Positions 3,587 through 44,216 of a stretch of 64,000 bases of DNA are shown here, piece after piece. The notes under the pieces were generated by a model. The model was not told the DNA's origin. It was given only the letters and a program-made list of their open reading frames with translations, and made no database searches. Position 1 is the first letter of the stretch. Every line of letters starts with the position of its first letter. This DNA is from a virus (lineage: Duplodnaviria; Caudoviricetes): IMG/VR virus record IMGVR_UViG_3300020576_003018, positions 13,126-77,125 of that record; one strand, written 5' to 3'. Position numbers and translations under genes: made by a program.

Positions 3587-3653
3587 TTACCCACGACTAT
3601 TGATTTCGTGGGTTGTTTTTGTATTGAGGCTCAAAGGCCCCAACAACTGGTTT

Positions 3654-4677: not shown

Positions 4678-4686
4678 TTTTGTTTA

Positions 4687-5406: not shown

Positions 5407-5407
5407 T

Positions 5408-9369: not shown

Positions 9370-9383
9370 GTTTTATGTTTCCT

Positions 9384-10361: not shown

Positions 10362-10384
10362 GCTAAGAACACCATACACCAACA

Positions 10385-11188
10385 CTACTTCTTTGTCTTT
10401 GACTTATTTTTGCGCTGTTTCTTTTTAGCAGGGAGAACTACTCCCTTGCCATCATCTTCCTCTTTTTCTCCCAGAGGATCATCAACAGGGACAATGTTCG
10501 ACAGTGGATGTTCCGAAACAATGCCGCGCCAGTGCGCTGGTTGCTTATCAAAGTCTTCTTCGGTTGGAAAGGTTCCACTAGGAGTGTTGTGTCGAATGAC
10601 TCTTACATGCCTCTTGGAGTCATAGGGAATATCCTCCGGGTCCATCCCCGTTAAGAGATCTCCAAGTGATTTCTTTAACGGGGATGGAAATGCTGCATCT
10701 TCTTCCATGAAACAACCACAGCCGCAAACATCACATCCAAGTTGTTCATCTGGCTCGCAGTCACCTTCGCACCCACACACGTCACAAACGCCACAGGAGC
10801 CTTTTCCTTGCCCTTGGATTTCTTCAACGGGTTCCTGGTCGTCTTCCTCGTCTTCGTCGATTGTAAAAGCTTCTGGGGCCTCTGGCGGCTGTGTTGGCGA
10901 GCCACCAACATCAACACTTTTGCCTGGGGTTGTTTCATCACCACAAGAGTCATCACACATGTGAGCATCAGGGCTGTGATCACAACAAGGAGCCATGACC
11001 TTTTTAAGTTCATCAACAGCAAGATCAATTGCTTCGTGAACGTCGGTGAGGCTGGTGATCATATCTCTCGACATCTGCCCGGTCTTTTCCACTTCCTCAA
11101 GCATGTCGTGCATGTCTCCGAAAAGAGATTTCAGTCCACCAATGAAAAGACGTGCTTTTAGTGGATGGTTGGTTTTTGCTTTTGTCAT
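10385..11188 (-). CDS. Hypothetical protein with acidic and Cys-rich segments
   Basis: CGVCDVCGCEGDC and GCDVCGCGC; basic C-terminus; start ATG 11188 chosen downstream of the guaC stop. Confidence 0.5.
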   Translation of the reverse strand: MTKAKTNHPLKARLFIGGLKSLFGDMHDMLEEVEKTGQMSRDMITSLTDVHEAIDLAVDELKKVMAPCCDHSPDAHMCDDSCGDETTPGKSVDVGGSPTQPPEAPEAFTIDEDEEDDQEPVEEIQGQGKGSCGVCDVCGCEGDCEPDEQLGCDVCGCGCFMEEDAAFPSPLKKSLGDLLTGMDPEDIPYDSKRHVRVIRHNTPSGTFPTEEDFDKQPAHWRGIVSEHPLSNIVPVDDPLGEKEEDDGKGVVLPAKKKQRKNKSKTKK

Positions 11189-11204
11189 GATGTTGCTTTT
11201 CTGA

Positions 11205-12215
11205 TTACCTTCCTCGGATACCGAATGTGATGTTTTCTCGGAAGTCATTTGTGGATGTTGCGCCAATATAGGAGTACGCTGACTGCAAACCACCTTTGAG
11301 AAGTTCCACAATTTCTTTTGCTGAAGGTTTTTTGGAAACGAGAATAGTCTCGCCTTCCGGCGTTGGAAGTGTGTCAACACTCCGCACTTTGACCGCTGCT
11401 TCGGAACTAGCCATGCCACGATAAATCACCTCACCCTTTTCTGTTGTTCCACCAACACATGGAGCTTCTGGACATCCGGCAAAAAAGTATCCGGACATCA
11501 CAGCAGTCGCCCCAGCACCAATCGCTTTGGCAACATCTCCATATTCTCTTGCTCCACCATCCGCAATGACTGGGATTCCCCATCGACTAGCTCGTTGAGA
11601 ACACTCCAACACTGTTGAAAACATTGGAGTGACAACGCCCGTCACATTCTTCGTCAAACAAACCTTTCCACCACCAATTCCAACCTTGATTGCATCAACC
11701 TTCCAATCTCGCATGGAATCAACAGCCCAAGAAGTTCCCACATTCCCAGCAACAATAAAAATATCCCTGCCATAAGTCCTTCTTAGCCATTTAACCGTGT
11801 TTTCCATCATGGAACTGTGTCCATGAGCAATGTCAACAATGAAAAACCTTGCACCGGCTGTGTAAAGTGCCTCGGCCCGCTCATGCCAGTTCCCATTCAC
11901 ACCCAAAGAAACAAAGCAATTTGCTTGAGCACGTTGAACTTCACAAAACTCAGCAACAGCTTCTGGAATAGAATTGAACCGATGGAGCGCACCGATTGCC
12001 CCAGCTTGCCATAGAGCAATTGCCATTTGAGATCCCGTGACAGTATCCATGTTCGCAGAAACAACTGGAACCATGAGGGAAAGACTCAATTTGCTGTTTG
12101 GGCTTCCAAGAATAACTTCGGTGTTGACTTGCTTTCTGGAAGTCACATCAGAGAAGTTTGGAACGATGAAAACATCGGAGTATTCGTATGAGGGCGTTGT
12201 TAAAATATTAGCCAT
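11205..12215 (-). CDS. guaC: GMP reductase (IMPDH/GMPR family, no CBS domains)
   Basis: [42 protein letters not shown]; GKVCxTK is the Bacillus-type GuaC form of the catalytic loop. Confidence 0.8.
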
Positions 12216-12269
12216 GAGTTCAAGCCTACGCTGGCATATTCCCCCAGTCTAGTTATTTCCACCTGCTCC

Positions 12270-12644
12270 ATGAAACTCACCAAAGAAAACCTGGAAATCA
12301 TCAAACGGTTCATTCAACACTGTGCCAAGGAGCTTGATTTGCATGGAAAAATAACCATCACCCTGTCCGAGAGACAAACAACTGGAATGCCAACTGCTGG
12401 ATATTGTGATCCGCATGGCATGACAGTTTTTGTTGCTATCAAGAACAGGGCAATGGCTGACTGCTTGAGAACGTTGGCTCATGAGTTGACTCATTGCAAA
12501 CAAGCTCAAAGGGGCGTTGTTTTTCCAAACGATGATGAAGGTTTGCAACCTTACGAAAACGAAGCGAATGTTGAGGCTGGAAAGTTGGTTAGGTTTTGGG
12601 GGCGTGAGAACAGAGTGATCTATGAGGATCTGAAATCCGGTTAG
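12270..12644 (+). CDS. Small zincin-like metallopeptidase
   Basis: RTLAHELTHCKQ (HExxH) with downstream ENEAN. Confidence 0.6.
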   Translation: MKLTKENLEIIKRFIQHCAKELDLHGKITITLSERQTTGMPTAGYCDPHGMTVFVAIKNRAMADCLRTLAHELTHCKQAQRGVVFPNDDEGLQPYENEANVEAGKLVRFWGRENRVIYEDLKSG

Positions 12645-12648
12645 ATTT

Positions 12649-13725
12649 TCATTTCATGGAGAGGTAAACATCAGAAACATACTTGAGGGCAACACGTCCG
12701 TGTTTTGAATCAAATCTTTCAGCCCGATTCAACTTCACAACAACACCCTCACGAACAACCTGACCGGGAAACAAAGTCTCCTTCGCTTCCGCCAATTCAG
12801 AAAGATTTACTTCTGAAAGCTTCCCGCGGAACAAAACTGGAACAACTTCCTTCATCCCTTCTGAGTAAGCTGGATTGTCCAACATCTCTCCATTAGAAAC
12901 CCAGCGACCGTTTTCCATCACGTCAAAGGCGGCAAAACCATATTCGCCATTCTTTTTCCCGTATGAGAATTGTCCCCCCTGAACGTTGGGACCATAAATC
13001 TCTCCGTAAAGAACAGCCTTGGGATGTGCTCGGCACCAATCCTCAATCCAAGGGTTCTGTCGAATAGCTTCCCACCACAAGCAGGACTCGGGCCCAATAA
13101 CCTTTGTAACTTCCTCACCTTCCTTGTTTGTGTAGGTGATTTGCCGAGGCTCAACCCCACTTGGATTCCTCTTCCAAGTCTTGTGACTCCCAGCGTGCAT
13201 CTTCTCACCATCAAAAACAAATCGTGCGTTGGTTCCATGAATCTTCACGGAAACATTCACTTCATCTTCTGGATTGAAAAGACGATGATATTTCCTGAAA
13301 TTCTCCAGTTTGTAAACTGGGGCTTCGACATACTCTGGGCCTTGGGTTGCAACTCCAGCCTTGGTTCCACTGAAGAAAGTTGGAGGATCGTAATGCTCCA
13401 CTTCCAGTTGCTCCATGACATCATCTCCCTCAACAGCACCTTCGGGAGCTTTGATCAAAAGCCCATAGGAAGGCTCCCCGCGGAGACGAACAACCGTGAG
13501 ACGATGACGTTCGCGGCCCTTGCCCTTGTCCAAGTGCTGGAATTCAGGGCGAGAAAGCTTAACCGTGTTGTCCGGTTCAATGAACGCAGCCAAATCACCG
13601 ACTTGGAATTGTCCCTTTCGAACGACTGCTTGGTATCCCCAAACAGGAATGATTTCGAGAGCATCGGCATTGGGATGTTTTTTTACTTCTTCAACCCGAA
13701 TCACTTTTACTTCGTGTGTGCTCAT
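12649..13725 (-). CDS. RNA ligase, DRB0094/Rnl5 family
   Basis: N-terminal OB domain (HPNADALE, QAVVRKGQF, GDLAAFIEPD), motif I KIHGTN, LYGEIYG, AAFDV, REGVVVK, LKYVS. Confidence 0.88.
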   Translation of the reverse strand: MSTHEVKVIRVEEVKKHPNADALEIIPVWGYQAVVRKGQFQVGDLAAFIEPDNTVKLSRPEFQHLDKGKGRERHRLTVVRLRGEPSYGLLIKAPEGAVEGDDVMEQLEVEHYDPPTFFSGTKAGVATQGPEYVEAPVYKLENFRKYHRLFNPEDEVNVSVKIHGTNARFVFDGEKMHAGSHKTWKRNPSGVEPRQITYTNKEGEEVTKVIGPESCLWWEAIRQNPWIEDWCRAHPKAVLYGEIYGPNVQGGQFSYGKKNGEYGFAAFDVMENGRWVSNGEMLDNPAYSEGMKEVVPVLFRGKLSEVNLSELAEAKETLFPGQVVREGVVVKLNRAERFDSKHGRVALKYVSDVYLSMK

Positions 13726-28149: not shown

Positions 28150-29019
28150 ATGAAGGAAATCCTGATCCCATCCGACGAATATCAGATTCGTTTCTACTGT
28201 AACACCAAAACTTCCAAAACCTGCTGGTTTGATTGCAACCCAAAAGAAGACGGAACTTACATTGAAATGACCCTGTGTGAAGCGTTCCGATATGCTTCTG
28301 AGGATCGTTCGGTAAAGTGTCCCCACTGTGGCACAAGAATGCAACCAGATTCTCACATCCGACACAAAGAAAAGACTCAGGCAGAAATCCTGGAATCAGA
28401 GCTTTGGCAGTTGACTGATGATGAGGTAGTGGAAAGTTGGTTAGATGATTACAGGGAGGCAACTAGGGCTCACATGGACTCTCTTTCAGATGATGAGTTT
28501 TTGAAACAGGTTCTTCCGCATGAGCTTGTTTTTGTTTACGGAACCCTCAAACGAGGTTTTGGAAACCATTCATATTTGAACGGTTCTGAGTTCCTTGGCA
28601 TTGGGGTTCTTAGAGACTCAAGGATGGAACTTGTTAGTTTGGGTTTCTGCCCAGCGGTTGTGAAAGTTCATGAAGAGAAAGGGAATGGAGTTGCTGGGGA
28701 ATTGTATTCTGTAAATCACAAAACCCTTCGCCGCCTTGACGCTCTTGAGGGTAATGGATTTCTATATGCCCGAGAACAGTTCGAGGTTGATTATTACTGC
28801 CACAAAACAGAAACAACGAAGGCTGCTGTGGCCTGGGTTTATGTCCTCCTGGAAAACAACCTCGAACCACTGACGAGCGATGATCGTGTCAAGCACGTTG
28901 CTGTTGCTGACAATTCTTTCTTGTCAAGGTCTTCAAGCTGTGTTGGTCTTGATGATGCTGGGATTCAACACTGGATCAAACAAGAGGAACTCAAAGAACC
29001 TTTTGAGTTGACCGAATAG
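28150..29019 (+). CDS. Gamma-glutamylcyclotransferase (AIG2/GGCT-like) with N-terminal Zn-ribbon
   Basis: VFVYGTLKRG..NH..L, GELYSV, LDALEG; N-terminal CPHCG. Confidence 0.85.
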   Translation: MKEILIPSDEYQIRFYCNTKTSKTCWFDCNPKEDGTYIEMTLCEAFRYASEDRSVKCPHCGTRMQPDSHIRHKEKTQAEILESELWQLTDDEVVESWLDDYREATRAHMDSLSDDEFLKQVLPHELVFVYGTLKRGFGNHSYLNGSEFLGIGVLRDSRMELVSLGFCPAVVKVHEEKGNGVAGELYSVNHKTLRRLDALEGNGFLYAREQFEVDYYCHKTETTKAAVAWVYVLLENNLEPLTSDDRVKHVAVADNSFLSRSSSCVGLDDAGIQHWIKQEELKEPFELTE

Positions 29020-33049: not shown

Positions 33050-33300
33050 TGTCCGCTAGACCCAAAATAGGTGGACTATACCGTTCCATCACATCGTCTC
33101 TCGAACTCCATCCGAGCGATGAATTTGGATTATACCGCTTCCCCAAGCTGGGTGAGATGTTTGTATTTTTGAGGCGTGAACCACAATTCCATAGAAGTGG
33201 TGTGTACCTTGTTTTGAGAGTTGTTGACGGAAAAACGTATTTGTGGTGCGGAAACCTTCAATTTCGATTTGAACCTGTTGAGACAGAGGAAATACTTTGA
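33046..33300 (+). CDS. Array-family protein
   Basis: IGGLYR, GEMFVFL, VDGK. Confidence 0.7.
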   Translation: MMSARPKIGGLYRSITSSLELHPSDEFGLYRFPKLGEMFVFLRREPQFHRSGVYLVLRVVDGKTYLWCGNLQFRFEPVETEEIL

Positions 33301-33788
33301 TGCCAATTCTAACACGAACAACGCCAATCCCCAAGACGCAAGAGGATTACTACAATTTCCTCAATGCACATTACTTCAATCTTTTCGGGAATCATTACCC
33401 AGACGCTTGTGTCCCACTCGGCTGGCATAAGATCATCCTGTTTCTCTGCGAACAAACACAAAGAATGATTTGTGGGTATGGAATGCCGCGCAACATAGTG
33501 CTCTTTGAGCAGATCAAGGAAAAGTTTGGGAGCCTCAGAGTTTATGTTTGCATTCAGGTTGACAACAACCCAGAAGACGTGGTAGAAGGTGTGCCTCTGC
33601 CTGAAACTGTCGAACACCTTCGACTGCATGTTCATGATCTCATCAAGGTTGCGGAGAGAATGGCAGACAAAACCTGCGTTGGTTGTGGCGAAGATGACCA
33701 GCCAGTAAAATCATCCAGTTTTGGCACTTACTGTCAGGATTGTTGGCAACTCATAAACTCTCAAAGAAAGAAGGCATTCATCCCATGA
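33297..33788 (+). CDS. Conserved phage hypothetical protein with C-terminal Zn finger
   Basis: GWHKII, QIKEKFGSLRVY, CVGCG...YCQDC. Confidence 0.7.
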   Translation: MMPILTRTTPIPKTQEDYYNFLNAHYFNLFGNHYPDACVPLGWHKIILFLCEQTQRMICGYGMPRNIVLFEQIKEKFGSLRVYVCIQVDNNPEDVVEGVPLPETVEHLRLHVHDLIKVAERMADKTCVGCGEDDQPVKSSSFGTYCQDCWQLINSQRKKAFIP

Positions 33789-34840
33789 AGATTCTGGTTG
33801 GCATGTCTGGTGGTGTTGACTCTGCGGTTGTTGCTGCTCTTCTCAAGCGAGATGGGCACGAAGTTTATGGGTATACCCTCAAGCTTCTCGAAACCACCAA
33901 GGGCGACGAAAGCGAGGGTTGCTGCACCTTCAAGGATATTCGTGATGCTCAGATGGTTTGTGATACCATTGGCATTGAGTATCTTGTCACCAACTGGAAG
34001 AAGGTTTTCAAGACCAATGTGATTGATCAGTATGTTGCTGGGGCCAAGGAAGGGATTGCTTACAATCCTTGTGTTACCTGCAATTCAACCGTGAAGCTTC
34101 CTGTGCTTTTTGCTGTTGCTAACCATCTCCACTGTGACATGGTTGCAACTGGTCATTACGCTCGGATCAAGAATGGCCGAATTGCTCGTGCAGCAAATCT
34201 CGCAAAGGATCAAAGCTATTTCCTTTGGGAAGCTGACCCGAAGATTCTTGAGCGGTTTGTTTTTCCTCTCGGTGACATTCCCAGCAAGGATGACACCCGG
34301 AAGCTCGCAGAAGAGTTTGGTCTGACTTCTGTTTCAAAGAAGAAGGATAGTCATGATCTTTGTTTCTTCGAAGGCGGAACCAAGACAGAGTTTCTGGAGA
34401 AGCACATTCCTCCAGCCACGGGAAAGTTTGTTGACAACAGCACTGGCAAGGTTGTTGGAACCCATGAAGGTTTTTCCAACTTTGTTCCTGGGCAGCGGGC
34501 AAAGATTGCTGGTTCTTCTTCTCCTCGGTTTGTCTTGAAGGTTCTTCCTTCCAGCAACGAGGTGTTGGTTGGGTCGAAGGAGGATGCTGGTGTGACTGAG
34601 GTCATCATCAATCGCTCCAGGATCGTTTCTGGTGCCACGGATATTCCTCTGTGGGGTGTGATGAGGTACCGAGGTGTTCCCGCCCCTATTAAGGCGATTA
34701 GGCCTCTTCCTGGTGATCTGGACAATTCCAGGATGGTGGTTGAGTTTCAGGAGATGGTTTTTGGTGTTTCTCCTGGTCAGAGTTTGGTGTTCTATGGTGA
34801 GGATGACACCGTGTTCGGTGGTGGAGTGATCGAAAAGTAG
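33785..34840 (+). CDS. mnmA: tRNA-specific 2-thiouridylase
   Basis: PP-loop SGGVDS, GCC, NPCVTCN, ATGHYARI, KDQSYFL, KKDSHDLCF, GQSLVFY. Confidence 0.93.
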   Translation: MKILVGMSGGVDSAVVAALLKRDGHEVYGYTLKLLETTKGDESEGCCTFKDIRDAQMVCDTIGIEYLVTNWKKVFKTNVIDQYVAGAKEGIAYNPCVTCNSTVKLPVLFAVANHLHCDMVATGHYARIKNGRIARAANLAKDQSYFLWEADPKILERFVFPLGDIPSKDDTRKLAEEFGLTSVSKKKDSHDLCFFEGGTKTEFLEKHIPPATGKFVDNSTGKVVGTHEGFSNFVPGQRAKIAGSSSPRFVLKVLPSSNEVLVGSKEDAGVTEVIINRSRIVSGATDIPLWGVMRYRGVPAPIKAIRPLPGDLDNSRMVVEFQEMVFGVSPGQSLVFYGEDDTVFGGGVIEK

Positions 34841-34858
34841 TTCAACCACATAATTCTC

Positions 34859-34887
34859 TTGTGGTTGGGTTCGGGACATGATAGAGT
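34859..34887 (+). promoter_or_regulatory. Sigma70-like promoter, leaderless
   Basis: TTGTGG-17-TAGAGT-6 nt-ATG 34894. Confidence 0.6.
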
Positions 34888-34893
34888 CTCATC

Positions 34894-35184
34894 ATGAACC
34901 ACGCCAAGACAGTGAAATACGTTCGGAAGATGGCTCTTGCCCTTCTTGCCTATGTGCAAGGATATGGTGGCAACGAGCCATTTTCTGTTGATGGTTTGGT
35001 ATTCAACGGCAAGTCGTTCAACTATCTCGGAAACACAATCGGATTTTTGGATTTTGACACGCAGGAACTTCACTTGAATGTCAACAGCAGTTACTCGTGT
35101 CCTTTGATGCGAGATGTTCTCAACCAGTTTGGTTATTTTTTGGAGACTTCGTTTGAGGGTTGGAAGGTGATCTACCATGTCTGA
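34894..35184 (+). CDS. Hypothetical protein
   Basis: First gene after the promoter. Confidence 0.6.
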   Translation: MNHAKTVKYVRKMALALLAYVQGYGGNEPFSVDGLVFNGKSFNYLGNTIGFLDFDTQELHLNVNSSYSCPLMRDVLNQFGYFLETSFEGWKVIYHV

Positions 35185-35637
35185 GACCAATACCATTTTC
35201 AGCAAGTTCATTTTGGAGGCAATCAAATTGTCTCGTGAGCATGAGTATGAACCTAACCTCCAGGCTTATCTGACGGCGTTGATTGTTTCAGGCGGGAAGA
35301 TTCTGTCTGTTGGTTTTAATGGCCGGGATAAGGCATCCTCTGGCCTTCAGCGACGTTATTCCCAGCACAACTCTCATCGTGCTTCCAAGCCTTGCACGAT
35401 TCACGCTGAGATTGATGCTGTTTTGAACTGTCGGAAGAAGATTGATCTGACCGGCAGCAAAATCTTTGTGATTCGTCGGTTGCGTTTAGATTCTGTTGAG
35501 AATCCTTTGATTGCAATGGCGAAGCCTTGTCCGATGTGTCAGGCAGTGCTGTTCTCTCTTATGGTATTCGTCGTGCAACTTACACGATTTCCAATGATGA
35601 GTTTGGTGTGCTGAACATCACTGATCCCAGGAAGTGA
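35177..35637 (+). CDS. Zn-dependent cytidine/dCMP-type deaminase, C-terminal frameshift
   Basis: TIHAEIDA, AKPCPMC; removing one CT at ~35555 restores YGIRRATYT... ending at TGA 35637. Confidence 0.8.
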
Positions 35638-35638: not shown

Positions 35639-35911
35639 GTGGTTAAAATGTTGAAGAGTGGTGGTTTGTTCCAAGTGGCTCGCATAACGATCGCCGTTTG
35701 GAGTATTTCCGATTTTGCTGATTTTCGCAGGGCTTCCACGTTGGAAGCGGGGGATTTTTTCATTCTTCTCAAGCCAAACAGTTCGTTTGGCTTTCATGTG
35801 AATTATTCAGAAATTCTGGTCTCTAAAGATGGCAAACGTGGTTTTATTGCGAACCTTGTCCTAAACATCCAAAACGGTTTTGTTGTTGAAGTAAAGGAAT
35901 TAGAACAATGA
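35639..35911 (+). CDS. Array-family protein, KDGKRGFI subfamily
   Basis: GGLFQV, AGDFFIL, ILVSKDGKRGFI. Confidence 0.7.
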   Translation: MVKMLKSGGLFQVARITIAVWSISDFADFRRASTLEAGDFFILLKPNSSFGFHVNYSEILVSKDGKRGFIANLVLNIQNGFVVEVKELEQ

Positions 35912-36177
35912 AGATTGGTAGTCTATATCGGGTTGTTTTAGGTTCGAAACCCTGGCTCCGCGGCCATGCCATTTGGGAGACTGATGAGATCGGCTCCGAC
36001 GATGATGCTAAGATAGTCAGCAGGCTGTGCCGAGGAGATCACTTTGTTTTTCTTGGCAAAGGTCGGAATGGTTTCGATGAAATCCTAGTTTCCAAAGACG
36101 GTCAACGTGGCTTTATTCATGGTGTGGACGGGTTGTTGCAGGGGGGCGTGGTGGCAAAAGTGGAGACAGAGAAATGA
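35908..36177 (+). CDS. Array-family protein, KDGKRGFI subfamily
   Basis: GSLYRV, GDHFVFL, ILVSKDGQRGFI. Confidence 0.7.
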   Translation: MKIGSLYRVVLGSKPWLRGHAIWETDEIGSDDDAKIVSRLCRGDHFVFLGKGRNGFDEILVSKDGQRGFIHGVDGLLQGGVVAKVETEK

Positions 36178-36407
36178 AAACTGGGGGTTTGTATCGGGCG
36201 ATTGACAAAGATTCCAACTGGATTGTGTGGTGGAATGCCGATCCAACAGATAGAACAACGGTTTCTGTTTTGAGAGAGGGTGATCTGTTTGTTTATCTTG
36301 GCGAAGGACTAAACGACTACTCGAAGGTTCTCATTGTGAAAGATGGTAAACGTGGTTTTATTAGAATCAACAATGAACACGTTGTAGAAATGGACACTGA
36401 TGAATGA
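36174..36407 (+). CDS. Array-family protein, KDGKRGFI subfamily
   Basis: GGLYR, GDLFVYL, IVKDGKRGFI. Confidence 0.7.
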   Translation: MKTGGLYRAIDKDSNWIVWWNADPTDRTTVSVLREGDLFVYLGEGLNDYSKVLIVKDGKRGFIRINNEHVVEMDTDE

Positions 36408-36682
36408 AAATCGGAGGGTTATTCCGGATTGTTGGCGGAGGAACTTGGGGCGTGTATTCGAACACTACAATTTCCGCCGAAGTAGCTTTCTGCATGAATG
36501 AGGGCGATTGCTTTGTTGTCCTGGAATGCGTCGAGCTAACCAAACGTCATACGGTTTCAAAAATTCTGGTGGTTGGCAGTTGTTTGAGCGGCTACATCTA
36601 TTCCTCAGATCGTTCTGACTCCGTTTATTTGAAAGAATTGACAGACAGAGAGGAAGGTGTTGGTGATGGCAACTCCGTATAA
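36404..36682 (+). CDS. Array-family protein
   Basis: GGLFRI, GDCFVVL, SKILV..GYI. Confidence 0.7.
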   Translation: MKIGGLFRIVGGGTWGVYSNTTISAEVAFCMNEGDCFVVLECVELTKRHTVSKILVVGSCLSGYIYSSDRSDSVYLKELTDREEGVGDGNSV

Positions 36683-37004
36683 TCCAAATTCCAGATATGT
36701 TCCTTGGCGAATCAAGATTGGAGATCTTGTGTTGATTCGTGCCAGTTTGGTTTATCATCCTGCTTCTGATGATGACTATATTCTTGCCGTATTGGTAGAA
36801 ATAAAAGAAGAAGGGGTTGATTTTATCAACCCCTGCAAGATCGTCTTTCTCTCCCCAAAACATGACAAAATTGCCATCTTTCTCTCCCCAAAACATGACA
36901 AAATTGCCATCTTTCTGGACGTTGTGGAAAACGAGGTTGTTGTGTCAAAAGCAAACAGATACCTCATCAGACGCGCACCAAAAGACGAAAATGAAACAGG
37001 TTAA
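36666..37004 (+). CDS. Array-family protein with internal 33-bp duplication
   Basis: IGDLVL; FLSPKHDKIAI twice. Confidence 0.65.
   Translation: MATPYNPNSRYVPWRIKIGDLVLIRASLVYHPASDDDYILAVLVEIKEEGVDFINPCKIVFLSPKHDKIAIFLSPKHDKIAIFLDVVENEVVVSKANRYLIRRAPKDENETG
36844..36916. repeat. Perfect 33-bp tandem duplication
   Basis: TCTTTCTCTCCCCAAAACATGACAAAATTGCCA x2. Confidence 0.95.
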
Positions 37005-37293
37005 ACCATGTACGAATTTGACTCCTGGCAAACTCTACAGTGTTGTTAGATTGCCGTCCACCAATCGAAAGTTTTCCAACATTATTGAATTGGTCGGGGT
37101 TGATCATTTCACGCAAGAATTTGTTGACATTTCACCTGGAGACATTCTCATGTTTATTACCACGGTGGGACCGTCAAGTGACGCCTGTGCGGCATTAAAC
37201 CTGTTTTTGTTTCAGAACAAACTGGTTCAAGTGGGTGCGTATATTCTAATACATGGTTTTTGGCTGGAGGAGGTTCAAAATGCTCATGAGTGA
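36991..37293 (+). CDS. Array-family protein
   Basis: PGKLYSV, PGDILMFI, WLEEV. Confidence 0.7.
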   Translation: MKQVKPCTNLTPGKLYSVVRLPSTNRKFSNIIELVGVDHFTQEFVDISPGDILMFITTVGPSSDACAALNLFLFQNKLVQVGAYILIHGFWLEEVQNAHE

Positions 37294-37519
37294 TCTTGTG
37301 GCCGGAACATTATGTGCTCACAAGGATTACGAAAATTATTTCCTTGTCATTCTGGGGAGGGATACAGAACAGGTAGAGGATTGCATTTATTGTTTCTTTT
37401 ATTGTTTGGAGACATGGAGGGGAAAAAATGGACCAGACATAGAAGCAAGGCGTGTCTTTGCCCCATACATTCTTAGAAAATTCGACTTGGTTGCAACTCC
37501 ACAGGAGGAATCAGAATGA
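37280..37519 (+). CDS. Array-family protein, CLETW subfamily
   Basis: AGTL, FLVILG, YCLETW. Confidence 0.65.
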   Translation: MLMSDLVAGTLCAHKDYENYFLVILGRDTEQVEDCIYCFFYCLETWRGKNGPDIEARRVFAPYILRKFDLVATPQEESE

Positions 37520-37770
37520 TCGAAACATACAGAAATCTTGTGATTGGAGGTCTTTACAAAATTAAAGATTGCTTTCTGCTTGTGCTTGGAGGTCTTTACA
37601 AAATTAAAGATTGCTTTCTGCTTGTGCTTGGACCTTCTGAAGAATACCCGAAAGATCGCGTTTATTGCATTGAATCTTGGAAAACACAAGAGGGTATTCG
37701 TGTTGAGTTGGGCCATGTTCTAATCACCACCATTCTCAGGCATTACAAACTCGTTTCAACGGAGGAATAA
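37516..37770 (+). CDS. Array-family protein with internal 42-bp duplication
   Basis: GGLYKIKDCFLLVL twice, YCIESW. Confidence 0.7.
   Translation: MIETYRNLVIGGLYKIKDCFLLVLGGLYKIKDCFLLVLGPSEEYPKDRVYCIESWKTQEGIRVELGHVLITTILRHYKLVSTEE
37544..37632. repeat. Perfect 42-bp tandem duplication
   Basis: TTGGAGGTCTTTACAAAATTAAAGATTGCTTTCTGCTTGTGC x2. Confidence 0.95.
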
Positions 37771-37774
37771 AAGG

Positions 37775-38008
37775 ATGGAGTTGCGCTATCCTGACGACAT
37801 GCCACTAGAAAAGGGTTGCCCTTATCCGATCATTGGTGGATTGTACCAACATCTCTTTTTTCCCGACACGTTTCTCCTTGTTGTTGAACACCATTCCGGT
37901 TCGGTTTTTACTTGCCTGGAGACAAGCGTTGGGAGGGATCCGATAATTTGTCACCTTTACGCCAGTTCCATTCATCAGTACACCACTCTCGTCACCGATT
38001 TTGGTTGA
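37775..38008 (+). CDS. Array-family protein, CLET subfamily
   Basis: IGGLY, FLLVV, TCLET. Confidence 0.65.
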   Translation: MELRYPDDMPLEKGCPYPIIGGLYQHLFFPDTFLLVVEHHSGSVFTCLETSVGRDPIICHLYASSIHQYTTLVTDFG

Positions 38009-38033
38009 CTCTGGCTCGAAGGCGGGGTAGAGT
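38005..38033 (+). promoter_or_regulatory. Sigma70 promoter, leaderless
   Basis: TTGACT-17-TAGAGT-6 nt-ATG 38040. Confidence 0.75.
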
Positions 38034-38039
38034 CTGGTC

Positions 38040-38288
38040 ATGCTTCATCGAATGCCAAAACCGGGAGATGTGATCCAGCGCCGCACAGCGCAGTGCCGAG
38101 TTCTTTTTGTTCTTTCGAGTTTCGATGAAAAAATTGACAAGAAGTTGCATGAGGACAATTCACACTGTCGGATTGAGGCATTGGCACCTAACGGGACAAA
38201 GATCGAAGTCGTAGTAATCTTCTACGACAGTTGGATTTTCTTCATTGATTCAGAAGTTTCGGATAGAACCAACAAAATAGAGGAGTGA
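38040..38288 (+). CDS. Array-family protein
   Basis: PGDVI, VLFVL, ALAPNG. Confidence 0.65.
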   Translation: MLHRMPKPGDVIQRRTAQCRVLFVLSSFDEKIDKKLHEDNSHCRIEALAPNGTKIEVVVIFYDSWIFFIDSEVSDRTNKIEE

Positions 38289-38785
38289 AAGAGGATAACA
38301 TGGAAGAGACGACTATTACAGAGAAGAAGGTTACGGTTCAGATCAAGGAGAATCCGCGGGACGTGTACTACATGCGTGGTCAGCAAACCCGAGATCATCT
38401 CAAGGCCAGAATGGAAGCCTTGAACGCTGGATATGATTACGACAATCCAGATTTTGACAAGATTCGAGAGTTTCTTGGGACTCTTCAAGTGGGTGACACG
38501 ATTGGTCTTGACGACACAGCTTACAAGGTGGCAAAAGTTAACATTCCCGAGTGTTCTCTTTCCTTGTTCAATCTAACACTGGCAAAACGTGGCAATCCAC
38601 CAGCCGTGGATATTGCTTCGGAAACGATTGGGTTTGCTCTTGCGTGTGGGTTTGCTGAGATCCTTTATCGGGATGACAAGCCTTACGGAATTGAGCTTGA
38701 GAAGGAATACACCATCAAGATTGTCAAGCGCGAAAAGGAGGAATCTGAAGATGGCACTGACGAAGAAGCAGAAAGTGATTCTTGA
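38285..38785 (+). CDS. Hypothetical protein
   Basis: 166 aa ORF with acidic tail. Confidence 0.65.
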   Translation: MKEDNMEETTITEKKVTVQIKENPRDVYYMRGQQTRDHLKARMEALNAGYDYDNPDFDKIREFLGTLQVGDTIGLDDTAYKVAKVNIPECSLSLFNLTLAKRGNPPAVDIASETIGFALACGFAEILYRDDKPYGIELEKEYTIKIVKREKEESEDGTDEEAESDS

Positions 38786-38948
38786 TCGGTTTTGTTCTGG
38801 CACCACCAGGACTTCCGTGGTAGAGTACGAAGACCTTCCAGCCCATGTTCGTGAAGAGCTTGAGGGTGGGAAGCTGTGGGAATCACTTTGGTGTGATGCC
38901 ACTCGATATGTGAATGATTCCCTGAACCCCAACAGAAAGAAAATGTAA
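38751..38948 (+). CDS. Hypothetical protein
   Basis: MALTKKQKVILD... 65 aa. Confidence 0.5.
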   Translation: MALTKKQKVILDRFCSGTTRTSVVEYEDLPAHVREELEGGKLWESLWCDATRYVNDSLNPNRKKM

Positions 38949-39034
38949 CTGATGACGAAGGTTGAACTCGCTTTCATTCAACACTTCCTTTCTCTCTTCC
39001 TTGCTCTTTCCACAAACACTGCCAGGAAACACAA

Positions 39035-39430
39035 ATGACTGAAGCTGAGATCCTTCTGCTGCTTCCTTCTGTTTTCTCTATTCTGGAGAGCAGAAAGGAA
39101 AAGATCCTGGCAGAGTATAAAACCTTTGAGGAAGATGAGGATATCGACCCGAAAAAACTTTGGAGTCTTCTTGTAGACTCAAAGAGTTGGTTCGTTGCAG
39201 ATGTTCACGAACTTCCAATTCAAGAGTTGGTGATGGTTGTTGATGATCTGCAAGCCATTCCAGATTGGTGTTGTGGCATGACTTATGTTTGCGTTCCTCC
39301 CTCTCAGTTGAAAGGAAATGAAATCGTGAAAACTTGGGTTTTTGAGTCAAAGCACGAAGAAGTCGATGAAGGCTTCGACTTGGTTGTTTGGACGGCTGAC
39401 GACGCCATCGTTGCATGGGATTTCCGATGA
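39035..39430 (+). CDS. Hypothetical protein
   Basis: ATGA-coupled to the exonuclease. Confidence 0.6.
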   Translation: MTEAEILLLLPSVFSILESRKEKILAEYKTFEEDEDIDPKKLWSLLVDSKSWFVADVHELPIQELVMVVDDLQAIPDWCCGMTYVCVPPSQLKGNEIVKTWVFESKHEEVDEGFDLVVWTADDAIVAWDFR

Positions 39431-40002
39431 TTGAAACAAACAACAAAACATATCGTTGTTTTCTCGACACTGAAACAACCGGACTGAACACTCGAAAGGA
39501 TCAGATCATTGAGATTTGTTTGGTGCTGGAAGAATTTGATCCAGACCATCGTCACCTTCGTGGAAACATCGTTAGGACATTCACAACCAAGGTAAAGCCA
39601 ACAATCAAAGTTGCTGAAAAGGCAGCGGTAATCAACGGATACACTCCAAAAGCCTGGGAGTATGCTCCTTACTTCTATGAGATTGCAGATAAGGTCGCAG
39701 AGATTTTAAGTCTTGCCATTGAGATTGTTGGGCACAACATCTCTTATGACAGAGCAATCATTGAAGAAGCAATGATTCGTTGTTCTGGGCATGAGGATTT
39801 CAGCTTTTATCACACGATTGATACTGCAACCTTGGCTTATGAACATTGGGTGGTTCCCGGTTACATCCCCAAGCAAAGCTTGCCTGTTGTTACAAAGTAT
39901 CTTGGAATCGAGCATTCCAAGGCTCATAGTGCCGAATCAGATACTCTTGCCTGCCGAGAAGTTTTTTATCGGGCTTTGAGTGAAGTAAACTGGAAACCGT
40001 GA
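39427..40002 (+). CDS. DEDDh 3'-5' exonuclease (DnaQ/epsilon-like)
   Basis: FLDTETTGL, IIEI, VGHNISYD, IDT, HSAESD. Confidence 0.9.
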   Translation: MIETNNKTYRCFLDTETTGLNTRKDQIIEICLVLEEFDPDHRHLRGNIVRTFTTKVKPTIKVAEKAAVINGYTPKAWEYAPYFYEIADKVAEILSLAIEIVGHNISYDRAIIEEAMIRCSGHEDFSFYHTIDTATLAYEHWVVPGYIPKQSLPVVTKYLGIEHSKAHSAESDTLACREVFYRALSEVNWKP

Positions 40003-40277
40003 AGGAGTTCAATGGCACAATGATGTATTTTGTGACGACTGCATGGAGAGGTTCTCTCAACATTTCGAATGCTCGCATGTTTACTGACCTTGATGAAGCA
40101 TTGAAACACTATCGTGTTCTGGCAAAAATGGAAGAACCTTTTTTGTCTGAGGATGGAACTGGTTGTTTTATTCGAATTTATGAGAGTAAAGCGGGTGAAC
40201 CTATCAAGCTGATGCCGGTAAAAGTGCTTAGGGCTGCAATGGCCAAGATCATCAAGAACGAATCCTCTTCTTCCTAA
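39999..40277 (+). CDS. Hypothetical protein
   Basis: GTGA overlap with the exonuclease stop. Confidence 0.55.
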   Translation: MKEFNGTMMYFVTTAWRGSLNISNARMFTDLDEALKHYRVLAKMEEPFLSEDGTGCFIRIYESKAGEPIKLMPVKVLRAAMAKIIKNESSSS

Positions 40278-40280
40278 TCG

Positions 40281-41066
40281 TCATTCTCCTCCGAGAATGA
40301 CCTTCTTCAAAACATCTTTCAGGTTTGCTGACTCGTTGACTCGATCTCTTCCGAGGTTTGGATCAAATGTTCCAGTTGGTGTTGACTTGCTTTGTGCGTA
40401 GTTCAATGCTTGCTGGGACATTCTTTGTGTTGGAGCAGCACGAGGAACTCTTCCAGAAACTCCGAAAGCTGGGGGAGAAGGGGTTACTCTAGCAGCACTA
40501 CGAATTTCATCCGGGGTTTGGCTTGCAGCCATTGGTTGTGTTTCATTTGATCTCGTTGCACCAAGCTCAGAAGTTCCCATGTGTTTTGTTGGGTTGCTTG
40601 CTGGGTTAGCAACGGCATTTGGAGTTACTGCTGGCAAAACCTTCCCTTGAGGAATTGTTGGTGCTGTTGCAACATCGCTTTTTGGAAGTGGAGGAGGAGG
40701 ATTCCCAGCAGAAACCGCTTTCGCAACAGTTGAAGAGTGTTTTGCTGTATCCTTGTCCAGCTTCATCCCTGGTGGTTCTCCCATAAATTTGATTGAGCCA
40801 AGAGCACCAATGTCAGATTCAACATCGTCAATTGCGTCATAAGCTTTTTGGAAGTCTGGGAGTTTTGATCCTGGACTTCTGACTGTCATTCCGATGTTGT
40901 TGAGTTTGCGAAGGGTTGCTCCTTTCAAGGCATCGACAACGGGAGAGTTTTTGATTGAGAATTCTTGTTTCCCAGAAGGAGATGGAGTGCTGTATTGCTC
41001 AGGCAAAAACTTCTCCAGAATGATCCAGTCTTTAATGAGGTTTTTCAAGGACATAGGTGTTGTCAT
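40281..41066 (-). CDS. Hypothetical Pro/Ala/Ser/Thr-rich protein
   Basis: Long minus-strand ORF; TATTTA immediately before ATG 41066. Confidence 0.6.
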   Translation of the reverse strand: MTTPMSLKNLIKDWIILEKFLPEQYSTPSPSGKQEFSIKNSPVVDALKGATLRKLNNIGMTVRSPGSKLPDFQKAYDAIDDVESDIGALGSIKFMGEPPGMKLDKDTAKHSSTVAKAVSAGNPPPPLPKSDVATAPTIPQGKVLPAVTPNAVANPASNPTKHMGTSELGATRSNETQPMAASQTPDEIRSAARVTPSPPAFGVSGRVPRAAPTQRMSQQALNYAQSKSTPTGTFDPNLGRDRVNESANLKDVLKKVILGGE

Positions 41067-41103
41067 GTAAATACTGACACCTGGGCAACAAAGATAAACA
41101 GGT

Positions 41104-42000
41104 ATGCCCAACATCGAGTTTTATGTTCCAAACAACGCCGAAGTGATTTTCGTTGAGGATTTTTTCGTGGATGAGATTCTGGGAGGTGCCGAGCTGACCT
41201 CTGATGCCATTATCCAGGCCGCCGATAGGATGGTATGCCACCTTCACTCACGCTCCCTCACCGAGCGCCTTGTTAAAGCTCACAGAGCCAAGAAATGGGT
41301 GTTTGGAAATCAAACCCAGGTTCCCCACTGGATCCTTAACCTCTTCCTTGAACTCAACGTCGAATATCATTTCTTTGAGTACGACTACAAACCATGTGTC
41401 TATCGCTCAACCAAAAAACATGAATCCATCACTGGAAAACCATGCGACTGCAATCAATCCCAGCACGGCCAATGGATGGCCCACTGGATGACAAGCGCAA
41501 AAACATTGTTCTGGTGCTCTGGAAAACAACGAGACAAGTTCTATTCCGAATATCCTCATCTCGCCGGTAAAACACGAGACTTTGTTCAAGGATCCACCTT
41601 CTATCCAGAAACAATCAAAAAGATTCGTGCTGTCAGAGAACAAAATCTCCCAGCACAAGATCATTGGTGCATCCTCGATTCCGATAGCTGGATCAAGGGA
41701 ACCTCTGACGCTGTTGATTTCTGCAACCAAAATGGAATGAAGTTCGTGCTGCTTAAAAATCTCAGCAACGAAGACTTTCTAAAACAACTAAGCTCCAGCA
41801 AGGGTCTTATCTTCTTTCCCAGAGACATGGACGTTGGTAGCAGAATCACAATTGAATCAAAACTCCTGGGGAGAGAAGTTATCCTGAACTGCAACGTCCT
41901 CGTCCAGTTTGAACCCTGGTTCTCTGGGAGCTTGGAAGGCATCGAAGAGTATTTCCTCGACGGACCAATGAGATTTTGGAAAACAATCCGCGGCTCCTAA
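41104..42000 (+). CDS. Putative glycosyltransferase (GT-B-like)
   Basis: GGAELT, WIKGT, FLKQLSSSKGLIFFP...SRITIESKLLG; resembles a GT-B C-terminal domain. Confidence 0.55.
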   Translation: MPNIEFYVPNNAEVIFVEDFFVDEILGGAELTSDAIIQAADRMVCHLHSRSLTERLVKAHRAKKWVFGNQTQVPHWILNLFLELNVEYHFFEYDYKPCVYRSTKKHESITGKPCDCNQSQHGQWMAHWMTSAKTLFWCSGKQRDKFYSEYPHLAGKTRDFVQGSTFYPETIKKIRAVREQNLPAQDHWCILDSDSWIKGTSDAVDFCNQNGMKFVLLKNLSNEDFLKQLSSSKGLIFFPRDMDVGSRITIESKLLGREVILNCNVLVQFEPWFSGSLEGIEEYFLDGPMRFWKTIRGS

Positions 42001-42072
42001 CTCTTCCCTTCTTGAGAACCACTCTCACCTTCTTGACCATCCTCTTCTTTAAGAGATGCCTCCTTCAATCCC

Positions 42073-42154
42073 CTTCTGGTTATCTTCCACTAGGCAAGAA
42101 AGTTGATCAAGGAAACCCCTAGATTCTCTGGGGGAAGCCGGGGGAGGCCCCCCT
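42073..42154. repeat. Third copy of the dispersed element
   Basis: CTTCTGGTTATCTTCCACT (19/19 to 2801-2819) and GCCGGGGGGAGGCCCCCT. Confidence 0.8.
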
Positions 42155-42165
42155 GACGATTTTTC

Positions 42166-42195
42166 TTGACGTATGGTCATTCGGCATGGTACCTT
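42166..42195 (+). promoter_or_regulatory. Sigma70 promoter, leaderless
   Basis: TTGACG-18-TACCTT-6 nt-ATG 42202. Confidence 0.65.
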
Positions 42196-42201
42196 TTGGT
42201 C

Positions 42202-42702
42202 ATGATGACGAACAACTTGGGGCTGCTGGAAAAGCAGGTGATTTTGATGTTGGGTGTTCCTGGTGCTGGGAAGAGCACCTATATTCGAGGGATTCCTGGG
42301 GAAGTGGTTGTGGCATCTGCCGACCATTATTTCATTGACCGTGAGACGGGCCAGTACCTTTTTGACGGCTCTCAACTGGGTCGGGCACACTCAGAGTGCT
42401 TGGCCAAGTTCAAGGCCGCTGTTATTCGTCCTGGAGCGATTACGGTGGTGGTAGACAACACCAACACCCAACTGAAGGCACTGGTTCCCTACGTCGAGTT
42501 TGCAAACCAACACGGAATCATTCCAACTCTGGTTCACATCGTTGCAGATCCCAAGGTTGCAGCAGCGCGAAATGTCCACGGAGTTCCCGAGGACAGCGTG
42601 ATGAACATGCACAACAGGCTTCAAACCCTCGTGTCTATCCTCAAGGGAAGCAATCACTTTCCGAACAAGCCCGAATGGAGGTATAACTTTGTTGAAGTCT
42701 AA
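42202..42702 (+). CDS. P-loop kinase (AAA_33 / polynucleotide-kinase-like)
   Basis: Walker A GVPGAGKST, SADHYF, VVVDNTN, RNVHGVP. Confidence 0.8.
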   Translation: MMTNNLGLLEKQVILMLGVPGAGKSTYIRGIPGEVVVASADHYFIDRETGQYLFDGSQLGRAHSECLAKFKAAVIRPGAITVVVDNTNTQLKALVPYVEFANQHGIIPTLVHIVADPKVAAARNVHGVPEDSVMNMHNRLQTLVSILKGSNHFPNKPEWRYNFVEV

Positions 42703-42871
42703 AACATGTCCCGAATGCAAGCAGGAAACCCGTTTGGTTGAGGAGTATCACAATGACAAATATGATGCTTACTTTTGTGAGCACTGTGGGGAGTGGGCCG
42801 AAGAGCGTTGCACTGATCCCGATTGTGATTTTTGTTGTTATCGCCCTCTTCATCCTCCGAAGAAAGAATAA
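42689..42871 (+). CDS. Small Zn-ribbon protein
   Basis: CPEC, CEHC, C.DPDCDFC. Confidence 0.55.
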   Translation: MLKSKTCPECKQETRLVEEYHNDKYDAYFCEHCGEWAEERCTDPDCDFCCYRPLHPPKKE

Positions 42872-42884
42872 AGAAAGAAAGACC

Positions 42885-44216
42885 ATGAAATTTGGTGTTG
42901 AAATTGAGTGTTTGATTCCAACTACTCCGCAAGATCCCAACCACCTCACCACTTTCAAAGCGGGCTTTATCCCTGCAATGCAAGGCAAGAAGGTTCCAGT
43001 AACCCGGAATGAATATGCCAGGGGGAATTCTGCTTGGCAAGTGAGGTTGGATGGTTCAATCAGGCCCCACAGCTCAGATTACGCTGGGATTGAGATTGTT
43101 TCGAGAATTCTCGATGCCAGCAAACCTTCTCATTGGAAAGAGATTCAGCATGTTTGTGAATATCTCCAATCAGTAGGGGCATATGCGAATTATTCCTGTG
43201 GTCTGCACATCCACATTGGACTTGGCGCAAAAAACCTGGAGAGAAAAGAAACGCTGAAGTTGGTTCAGCGATTGTTTTTGAGGTATGCAAGGGCAGAAAA
43301 AATCTTCGATGCGTTCGTTCCTGAAAACCGTCGAAACAACAAACTTGAGTATGCCCATTCGTGCAACAACAACAAGATGCTTCAGATGGTTTTGGGAGAA
43401 GAGAAAGACGCTCTCATCCTTTCTTACAACATTGATTCCAAATATTGGAAGGTAAACCTAAACTCTATCGAAAAGTTTGGAACGGTTGAGTTCCGGCACT
43501 TTGCCGGAACTGTCGATGCAGCAACAATCCAGACCTGGGCTCGCTTCCTCCTTGAGTTCGTCGAACAAACCAAAAAGATTGTGGATCTACCCGATTCTGT
43601 TGTTGCTCAGGAGGTTGGTCAAAACGTTGCTGCTGATTATGGGATGACGAAAGGCATGTATAACCTTTGGCAGTACCTTTGTCATGCTTATGAAGATGCT
43701 GTGAAGAACCGTATTGGTCTTCCCCTGCAAGCGGACAAACCAGTAGCGATGGTAGCGATGTCTATGCTTGACTATTACGGTAACAAGTCTAAAGAAGTCA
43801 TGGTTGGCATTCCTGTAGAACTCATTGCTCAAAGCACGGGTTTGTCGGTCAAATATATCACAGGAGCAACTCTTCGCCGCAAGTTTCAAAACTTGTGTGT
43901 TGGGCAAGATTCCATCCCGCAGTTTGAGTTTGAGCGTGCTGACTCCAATACCTTTCACTATTCACATGGAAGGCATCGTCCCATCCCGAGTATTCTTAAA
44001 GAAACCTTTGCATCTGATACGGATATGCGGTTGCTGAAAATCACAAGCAATCCCGCTGAATGGTTCAGGCCCATCATCAAACTGGATTCTTTCAGGAAGT
44101 ATTCTCTTTGGGATGGAATCTCCCCCAACATCAAATCCAAATTGCTCGAACGTGCTTCGGCATTGAACTCTGGTGATGCCGTTCTCCTCAGCCAAGTTCT
44201 TAGCTGTACTTGCTAA
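42885..44216 (+). CDS. Putative amidoligase (COOH-NH2 ligase type 2)
   Basis: FGVEIEC, DGSI, GIEIVS, CGLHIHIG, KVNL, TVEFRHFAGT. Confidence 0.85.
   Translation: MKFGVEIECLIPTTPQDPNHLTTFKAGFIPAMQGKKVPVTRNEYARGNSAWQVRLDGSIRPHSSDYAGIEIVSRILDASKPSHWKEIQHVCEYLQSVGAYANYSCGLHIHIGLGAKNLERKETLKLVQRLFLRYARAEKIFDAFVPENRRNNKLEYAHSCNNNKMLQMVLGEEKDALILSYNIDSKYWKVNLNSIEKFGTVEFRHFAGTVDAATIQTWARFLLEFVEQTKKIVDLPDSVVAQEVGQNVAADYGMTKGMYNLWQYLCHAYEDAVKNRIGLPLQADKPVAMVAMSMLDYYGNKSKEVMVGIPVELIAQSTGLSVKYITGATLRRKFQNLCVGQDSIPQFEFERADSNTFHYSHGRHRPIPSILKETFASDTDMRLLKITSNPAEWFRPIIKLDSFRKYSLWDGISPNIKSKLLERASALNSGDAVLLSQVLSCTC

Follow-up and report, generated by a model that had tools for sequence, protein, structure and literature searches.

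The closest described relatives of the enzyme considered here, by type, are the tRNA 2-thiouridine(34) synthases of Thermus, in which the CC-CxxC-C signature defines the [4Fe-4S]-dependent C-type of MnmA and for which direct sulfur transfer from IscS/SufS has been shown (Shigi et al., 2020, PMC7025502). Huge phages are reported to possess genes for the modification and ligation of tRNAs (Al-Shayeb et al., 2020, PMC7162821), and phage lambda needs the Tus/MnmA pathway of its host, via the control of programmed frameshifting (PMC2900299, PMC3296357). Here we analyze an mnmA gene and a nearby deaminase gene in a stretch of 64,000 nucleotides from the IMG/VR virus record IMGVR_UViG_3300020576_003018; this whole stretch is hereafter called the window. 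A prediction made from the sequence alone (the original prediction) had joined the two genes into a phage tRNA-modification module which, with an RNA-repair kit, would rewrite and repair anticodon loops. Our analysis established that mnmA is a genuine phage tRNA-thiolation gene, with a product that is predicted to be catalytically active, and the reading of the locus that we consider likely is that of an active C-type MnmA of a jumbo phage beside a separate, broken nucleotide deaminase. Related MnmA proteins were located at 13 loci by searches of viral contigs, which reach 391 kb; loci and genomes used for comparison are designated below by L and G numbers, respectively.

Identity and predicted type of the phage MnmA

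The mnmA product passed both curated equivalog cut-offs, with 314.9 bits against NCBIfam NF001138 (cut-off 284) and 276.7 bits against TIGR00420 (cut-off 236.95). Three Pfam domains, all above their cut-offs, were localized to residues 1-196 (PF03054), 202-263 (PF20259) and 313-349 (PF20258), and the three-domain layout of MnmA is thereby present, namely a PP-loop catalytic domain, a central domain and a C-terminal barrel. The best match among solved structures was E. coli MnmA (2DER; 1.6e-49), to which residues 2-350 could be aligned. This alignment revealed the PP-loop motif SGGVDS, the sequence NPCVTCN at the position of D99/C102 and DLCFF at the position of C199; both catalytic Cys positions of the E. 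coli protein, C102 and C199, are kept in the phage MnmA. The claim that the gene holds the full MnmA motifs was therefore well founded. The signature residues of the C-type (C46, C47, C96-x-x-C99 and C193) occur in 40/40 members of the phage clade described below, and the CC, CxxC, C, PP-loop and KDQSYFL motifs are likewise invariant (40/40). By its CC-CxxC-C signature the phage MnmA is assigned to the C-type, and [4Fe-4S] dependence is predicted. The PHROGs family that matches this protein end to end carries the label 'QueC-like', which is a mislabel.

A discrete clade of phage MnmA proteins

Within a collection of 5.8 billion proteins, the matches to MnmA split into two blocks with an identity gap between them. 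The first block consisted of about 40 clusters with identities of 45-63%, of which several lie on contigs of 90-270 kb, and the second of cellular MnmAs from many phyla with at most 41% identity. In a phylogeny against cellular MnmA, a check that had been proposed with the original prediction, the phage proteins formed a discrete clade, with 77 cellular-like MnmAs on the far side of one branch that has a support of 100 and a length of 0.6; since the groups had been predefined by identity, this branch shows discreteness and is not an independent test. The ratio of non-synonymous to synonymous substitution rates (dN/dS) of mnmA between the window and L002 or L003 was 0.036-0.041 at a dS of about 0.65, and the MnmA of G001 is 95% identical to that of the window. 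These results identify mnmA as an old, selected phage gene.

A phage mnmA had been called uncommon in the original prediction, and the databases agree: only 26 of 50,697 deposited phage records matched MnmA, many of which are short unannotated contigs. Two annotated phage records were inspected for mnmA, and one of these proved to be a host chromosome flank. The best annotated match, ON470584.1 (L058; 'Escherichia phage'), ends, at positions 37534-43469, in the E. coli genes icd, rluE, nudJ, mnmA and hflD; its mnmA was rejected as a phage gene because the flank is E. coli chromosome. Microcystis phage MaAM05 possesses mnmA without an adjoining deaminase. A literature search yielded no paper on phage-encoded MnmA. 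The main text of PMC7162821 does not mention the protein, and 200 of the 257 supplement files of that paper contained none of the terms 'thiouridylase', '2-thiouridine' or 'TrmU', the only hits being chance 'MNMA' strings in proteins. That huge phages have tRNA-modification genes was hence known, and the phage MnmA clade is a new and well-supported addition.

The window as a fragment of a jumbo phage

The completeness estimate of the 77-kb record implies a whole genome that would measure roughly 350 kb. Terminase genes are present in the relatives G001, G002, G003 and G005, and the 391-kb genome of G003 is complete and bears terminal repeats. Because the record is viral, four relatives have terminases and G003 has terminal repeats, we conclude that the window belongs to the genome of a jumbo phage and is not host DNA. 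A host origin of the contig had been named as one way in which the original prediction could fail; the terminases, the terminal repeats and the viral synteny described below all identify the contig as phage. No near-identical DNA was found in deposited phage genomes.

The larger relatives contain 8-23 tRNA genes, and ARAGORN detected tRNAs that are substrates of MnmA in each of the four relatives with tRNA genes: G001 has Glu(UUC) and Gln(UUG), G002 has Lys(UUU) and Glu(UUC), G003 has two copies of Lys(UUU) together with Gln(UUG) and Glu(UUC), and G005 has Lys(UUU). At 238-241.4 kb of G001 (L031/L050), which among the large relatives is the closest, at least 23 tRNA genes are packed into 3 kb and run into the end of the contig. 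This part of the array includes tRNA-Arg(ACG) and tRNA-Lys(CUU), and no Lys(UUU) is present on it.

A frameshift in the deaminase gene

The PF00383 model matched the deaminase allele of the window with 37.3 bits and that of L002 with 38.9 bits (cut-off 25), and phrog_174 'dCMP deaminase' matched it at 1e-11. The region named in the original prediction ends at 35637, but the deaminase gene is not a single open frame from 35177 to that position. Its HAE and PCxxC motifs were confirmed, but the frame ends at 35614 as a result of the insertion listed in Table 1. Translation localized the displaced tail, SYGIRRATYTISNDEFGVLNITDPRK, with its stop at 35635-35637, to the -1 frame, and 26/26 of its residues match the tail of the intact homolog P0005. 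In seven relatives (L002-L006, L008 and L009) both parts of the deaminase share one frame. The insertion is base-for-base identical in the 167-kb contig NODE_12 of an ENA assembly (ERZ4216102) and in two Logan assemblies, which derive from different sequencing runs, and the deaminase is called as a 145-amino-acid protein in three other assemblies. Since the same insertion recurs in three further assemblies, the frameshift is a real allele and not a read error. The lost segment corresponds to invariant columns of an alignment of the family (alignment A2) and, in the predicted core sheet, to the final two strands; because the lost hairpin carries these invariant residues and core strands, the deaminase of this strain is probably crippled. 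Programmed frameshifting was considered as a means of rescue and discarded, as no slippery heptamer was visible by eye at the (CT)3 site.

Family and likely substrate of the deaminase

The deaminase belongs to a phage-associated family of about 43 metagenomic clusters, for which the automatic names conflict (dCMP deaminase, TadA, RibD-like). Alignment A2 displayed the following features: HAE and PCxMC motifs, a GxN motif, an SGLQxRY loop and an insert of about 12 residues before PCxxC. The HAE and PCxxC motifs are invariant, and the family falls within the PF00383 superfamily. In a profile search of the PDB, the deaminase of S-TIM5 (4p9c) scored 2.5e-5 and T4 Cd (1vq2) 8e-5, and TadA was about 100-fold weaker (7e-3). 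A Foldseek search with an AlphaFold2 (AF2) model of the deaminase (predicted local distance difference test, pLDDT, 83) returned dCMP deaminases at all of ranks 1-10. Among curated models, that of TadA (NF008113) gave no match to the intact L002 allele and 13.7 bits with the distant homolog of L013 (cut-off 150), TIGR02571 (ComEB, dCMP deaminase) gave 15.9-20.7 bits against a cut-off of 219, and TIGR01354 (cytidine deaminase) gave about 13 bits, where 114 would be required.

In TadA, a C-terminal helix past the last strand serves tRNA binding, as seen in the TadA-RNA structure 2B3J. The AF2 model of the phage deaminase ends after beta5 (strand 142-146) and is predicted to have no C-terminal helix beyond it, which would argue against a TadA-like mode of tRNA binding. 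From its sequence and its model, we lean toward a divergent phage family that appears closest to dCMP and cytidine deaminases and not to TadA. The proposal that the deaminase serves as a tRNA-editing partner loses its footing on the same three counts: the lean toward dCMP and cytidine deaminases, TadA scores far under the cut-off and the lack of the C-terminal helix.

The genomic context of the deaminase leans toward nucleotide metabolism. ThyA was detected in G001 (398 bits), G002 (408 bits) and G003 (201 bits), and was not found on the 77-kb fragment; the deaminase is the sole PF00383 match on the 241-kb G001; and a 29%-identical homolog adjoins serine hydroxymethyltransferase (SHMT) and DNA polymerase. 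We place the chance that the substrate is a pyrimidine nucleotide or nucleoside at somewhat better than even, the rest being split between nucleic-acid and unknown substrates. A deaminase acting on dCMP only, which the original prediction had itself named as an outcome that would speak against a module, is the likelier result, though not proven.

Variable pairing of mnmA with the deaminase gene

Clustering of the open reading frames (ORFs) of 15 loci revealed a conserved gene order of RecA-like protein, GGACT, a 445-amino-acid protein, orf163, MnmA, the deaminase (where present), a 138-amino-acid protein and a 305-amino-acid protein, with variable small ORFs in between. This syntenic block with mnmA is common to at least 11 viral contigs. 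At its left end in L004 (336-1370), the RecA-like protein contains an intein-splicing domain. The deaminase lies 0.3-3.4 kb 3' of MnmA in eight loci. In L007, L012 and L014, the slot between MnmA and the next conserved gene holds no deaminase; in the complete genome G003 the deaminase is not near MnmA; and deaminase homologs occur on three contigs (103-189 kb) where no MnmA was found. Since the deaminase is variably absent beside MnmA and is found without it, the adjacency of the two genes reflects shared ancestry and local deletions, and is not an obligate partnership. A survey of phage genomes for the pair, as suggested with the original prediction, thus shows a pairing that varies among relatives. 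The module claim as a whole is not supported by these results, given a deaminase that is frameshifted here, missing at three related loci and present elsewhere without MnmA.

Two of the deaminase homologs directly follow a terminase gene. At L018 (2859-5969) and L019 (2912-5992), a LAGLIDADG domain, probably an intein, interrupts the large terminase subunit immediately 5' of the deaminase homolog, and an R2K-type ATP-grasp gene is located just 3' of it.

The RNA-repair kit of the original prediction exists as a set of genes, in that the window encodes an Rnl1-like ligase, an AAA_33 P-loop kinase, a metallophosphoesterase and a second RNA ligase. Its grouping with MnmA could not be upheld, because these genes lie 7-20 kb from MnmA and are scattered among arrays of small paralogous genes.

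Gene layout and neighbouring genes

The features of the locus are listed in Table 1. Four tightly packed genes are encoded on the + strand, and the series of MnmA, one small gene and the deaminase described earlier was recovered at its coordinates and on that strand.

Table 1. Features of the mnmA-deaminase locus; coordinates are positions in the window unless stated otherwise.
Feature	Position	Strand	Description
Window	13126-77125 of the IMG/VR virus record		Record completeness estimate 21%
orf163	33297..33788	+	From the ORF list; C-terminal CxxC...CxxC zinc ribbon; stop overlaps the mnmA start as ATGA
mnmA	33785..34840	+	tRNA 2-thiouridine(34) synthase, C-type by signature (CC-CxxC-C), 351 amino acids, intact
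orf96	34894..35184	+	96 amino acids; 53-nt gap after mnmA; last 8 nt shared with the start of the deaminase gene
Deaminase as read in this strain	35177..35614	+	145 amino acids; HAE and PCPMC, then 19 out-of-frame residues
Frameshift site	35554..35559	+	(CT)3 run with a 2-bp CT insertion versus L002 and L003 (DNA alignment)
Displaced deaminase C-terminal remnant	35557..35637	+	-1 frame; beta4-beta5 hairpin with family-invariant YG, Y and G

No Pfam family was found for orf163, and its PHROGs match was weak (phrog_6107). The gene is kept 5' of MnmA in L002-L005 and L007. It belongs to a broad, phage-only family with no assigned function that occurs in many contexts, which rules out a role as an MnmA-specific accessory. 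A structural search of the Atlas linked the fold of orf163 to a 388-amino-acid viral cluster with a NADAR domain, with an occasional NADAR fusion, hinting at a modular partner domain.

The sequence of orf96 is under purifying selection (dN/dS 0.11 versus L002), and on that basis we regard it as a real gene. Only three close protein clusters were found, and the gene is confined to the three closest genomes. No family match was obtained, and there was no Pfam match even at E<=1; an AF2 model (pLDDT 80) did not match any fold convincingly (best Z 5.2) and had no match at E<=0.001 among viral models. A CPLM motif had raised the idea of a TusA-like sulfur carrier, which was dropped when Pfam, fold, viral-library and Atlas searches provided no lead. 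In a scan of 32-36.5 kb for promoters and terminators, the counts were not above those of shuffled sequence.

The accessory genes of the window are of the jumbo-phage type and include two RNA ligases, a P-loop kinase, a metallophosphoesterase, a DEDDh exonuclease, Amidoligase_2, GGACT, IMPDH/GMP reductase and sugar-nucleotide enzymes. A host-like metabolic block opposite in strand (1346-13725, - strand) encodes glycosyltransferases, UDP-glucose dehydrogenase and NAD-dependent epimerase/dehydratase, together with a PD-(D/E)XK nuclease, the IMPDH/GMP reductase and the second RNA ligase, which has a PHA02142 OB domain. The AAA_33 P-loop kinase lies immediately 5' of a 492-amino-acid Amidoligase_2 protein (42166-44216), and a GGACT (gamma-glutamyl cyclotransferase-like) gene stands beside a pentapeptide-repeat protein (28150-29019), 13 kb from the kinase and Amidoligase_2; the three could be a system for peptide or amide-bond modification. 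Right after the deaminase, at 35639-37770 of the window and 7866-9966 of L002/L003, are paralogous ORFs of about 80-95 amino acids with an N-terminal GGLY/GSLY motif, the copy number of which differs among close relatives.

Discussion

We consider it likely that this locus combines an active jumbo-phage MnmA with a separate and probably crippled deaminase. During infection, the phage MnmA would adenylate C2 of the wobble uridine U34 in tRNA-Lys(UUU), tRNA-Glu(UUC) and tRNA-Gln(UUG), and would then exchange the oxygen for sulfur from a host cysteine desulfurase. Its likely clients are the phage's own tRNAs plus those of the host, the former because relatives carry large tRNA arrays with Lys(UUU), Glu(UUC) and Gln(UUG). 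The benefit may be an efficient, in-frame decoding of AAA/GAA/CAA-type codons that is independent of the MnmA supply of the host. The deaminase would have a separate function, most likely that of supplying the phage thymidylate synthase as a divergent enzyme acting on pyrimidine nucleotides or nucleosides, and in this strain a 2-bp slippage insertion has removed its conserved C-terminal hairpin. The adjacency of the two genes was presumably inherited within one phage lineage and would not mark a functional pair.

Several observations weigh against this reading. The 77-kb record has no tRNA gene, so that the link to phage tRNAs rests on the relatives, and in G001 the tRNA-Lys is CUU and not UUU on an array that is cut by the contig end. 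Codon preference in the confident genes was 0.45 for AAA, which is not above AAG, and mild for GAA (0.61) and CAA (0.58), and these figures make a codon-bias rationale for MnmA weak. Neither a phage MnmG nor a convincing phage cysteine desulfurase was found, which means that sulfur and the xm5 side chain would depend on the host. The sole class-V aminotransferase match was weak (36 bits), 31 kb from MnmA and present in one relative only; a phage-encoded sulfur donor or xm5 pathway was dropped for these reasons. With regard to the deaminase, no curated NCBIfam model came near its cut-off, and VIA-align ranked cytidine deaminases (Z 12.4) above dCMP deaminases (11.1) and TadA (10.1), all within about 2.5 Z units, a difference too small to separate these classes. 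The model ends in a beta-hairpin like the free cytidine deaminases and unlike the dCMP deaminases, in which the C-terminus contains a helix. Lastly, in the three closest genomes MnmA, orf96 and the deaminase run in the same direction and are closely spaced, an arrangement that would fit co-expression.

The alternative that fares best, though we think it unlikely, is a role in counter-defence, where the 2-thio (s2) status of U34 would alter the recognition of tRNA-Lys/Glu/Gln by anticodon nucleases (PrrC/RloC-like or PARIS-like), with the RNA ligases as a second line. Wobble modification is a determinant for several such nucleases. Confinement of the MnmA clade to jumbo-phage-like contigs, its strong purifying selection, the Lys/Glu/Gln tRNAs of the relatives and the presence of RNA-repair genes in the same genome would all be expected. 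Thiolation normally makes a tRNA more like the native nuclease substrate, however, and the simpler role in translation upkeep accounts for the same data.

The module itself, in which the deaminase edits tRNA (A34 to I or C to U), MnmA thiolates U34 and the ligases reseal the loops, is now improbable. It would fit the common direction of the three genes and the overlaps or short gaps between them in the window, L002 and L003, together with the presence of the two ligases, the kinase and the metallophosphoesterase, and it would suit the tRNA-Arg(ACG) of G001, a TadA substrate, plus its tRNA-Lys(CUU), as well as the reports of tRNA-modification and tRNA-ligation genes in huge phages (PMC7162821). 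These points are outweighed by a best TadA score of 13.7 versus 150 bits from a distant homolog only, by a model that lacks the C-terminal helix, and by sequence profiles and Foldseek searches that both put dCMP deaminases first. Furthermore, the deaminase is frameshifted while MnmA is strongly constrained, it is dispensed with in L007, L012 and L014 and is encoded on three contigs on which MnmA was not detected, and the repair genes are too dispersed to fit. A two-step, phage-encoded conversion of the anticodon, in which the deaminase would be a small nucleic-acid deaminase of a new, hairpin-ended kind and not an enzyme of the nucleotide pool, and would edit C34 to U34 in phage tRNAs (for example in the tRNA-Lys(CUU) or tRNA-Glu(CUC) of relatives) before MnmA thiolates the product, appears more doubtful still; if it were true, the frameshift in this strain would be a natural knock-out.

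We give very little credence to a non-tRNA substrate, under which an MnmA-like enzyme and the deaminase would, for example, thiolate and deaminate a pyrimidine nucleotide in a pathway of DNA modification. Some PP-loop enzymes, QueC among them, have come to serve the modification of phage DNA, the window has other modification-type genes (Amidoligase_2, GGACT, glycosyltransferases and the P-loop kinase), and PHROGs applies the name 'QueC-like'. Set against this, the phage protein has kept the central and C-terminal domains with which MnmA binds tRNA, it reaches the MnmA equivalog score and can be aligned over its whole length with E. coli MnmA in the tRNA-bound form, and relatives can do without the deaminase, which is broken in the window. 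Least probable of all is that mnmA is host DNA or a recent passenger without a role in infection: many 'phage' MnmA matches do look like host DNA, as in ON470584, and others are short unannotated contigs, but the data contradict it, with a nearest cellular MnmA at no more than 41%, the block in at least 11 viral contigs, terminases, terminal repeats and a dN/dS of 0.04.

The preferred reading, a working phage MnmA beside a separate deaminase, has the following implications. A conserved MnmA of the relay-independent type beside the phage's own tRNAs suggests that some giant phages handle U34 thiolation themselves, and host U34 thiolation is already known to limit lambda through the control of ribosomal frameshifting (PMC3296357). 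The phage MnmA thus offers a tractable test of the translational independence of jumbo phages from their hosts, and a compact Fe-S-type enzyme for biochemistry. The outcome for the deaminase warns against taking neighbouring genes as a module, and the deaminase family represents a modest target for enzyme discovery.

Among known systems, two groups come closest to the deaminase. The phage dCMP deaminases (T4 Cd 1VQ2, S-TIM5 4P9C and PBCV-1 bi-DCD 7FH4) provided the best profile and Foldseek matches and share the HAE/PCxxC zinc site, the GxN motif after strand 2 and, in relatives, the partner ThyA; the window family differs from them in an identity of 18-26%, the insert of about 12 residues, the SGLQxRY loop and a modelled beta4-beta5 hairpin without an intervening helix, and in the window it is frameshifted. 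The homotetrameric cytidine deaminases (B. subtilis CDA 1JTK and mouse CDA 2FR5) gave the top Z scores (11.3-12.4 over 117-122 residues) and resemble the window deaminase in size and in C-terminal hairpin topology. Their zinc site is Cys-Cys-Cys, whereas that of the window family is His-Cys-Cys.

The gene content of huge phages described previously (PMC7162821) has large tRNA arrays, tRNA-modification and tRNA-ligation genes and genomes of more than 200 kb in common with the present lineage. E. coli MnmA (2DER/2DET/2DEU), a D-type enzyme, resembles the phage protein in its end-to-end alignment, its PP-loop and both catalytic Cys residues, but it has Asp99 where the phage has Cys, and the phage protein has an additional CC motif, which indicates the C-type and not the D-type. 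No TusA-E genes were seen, although no search was aimed at them. The closest counterpart is the C-type MnmA of Thermus thermophilus, with which the phage MnmA shares three domains, the PP-loop and the full CC-CxxC-C signature. By analogy, the phage enzyme would be expected to take its sulfur straight from a cysteine desulfurase without a Tus relay, as the Thermus enzyme does; it differs in being encoded by a jumbo phage and in forming its own clade, with at most 41% identity to any cellular MnmA found.

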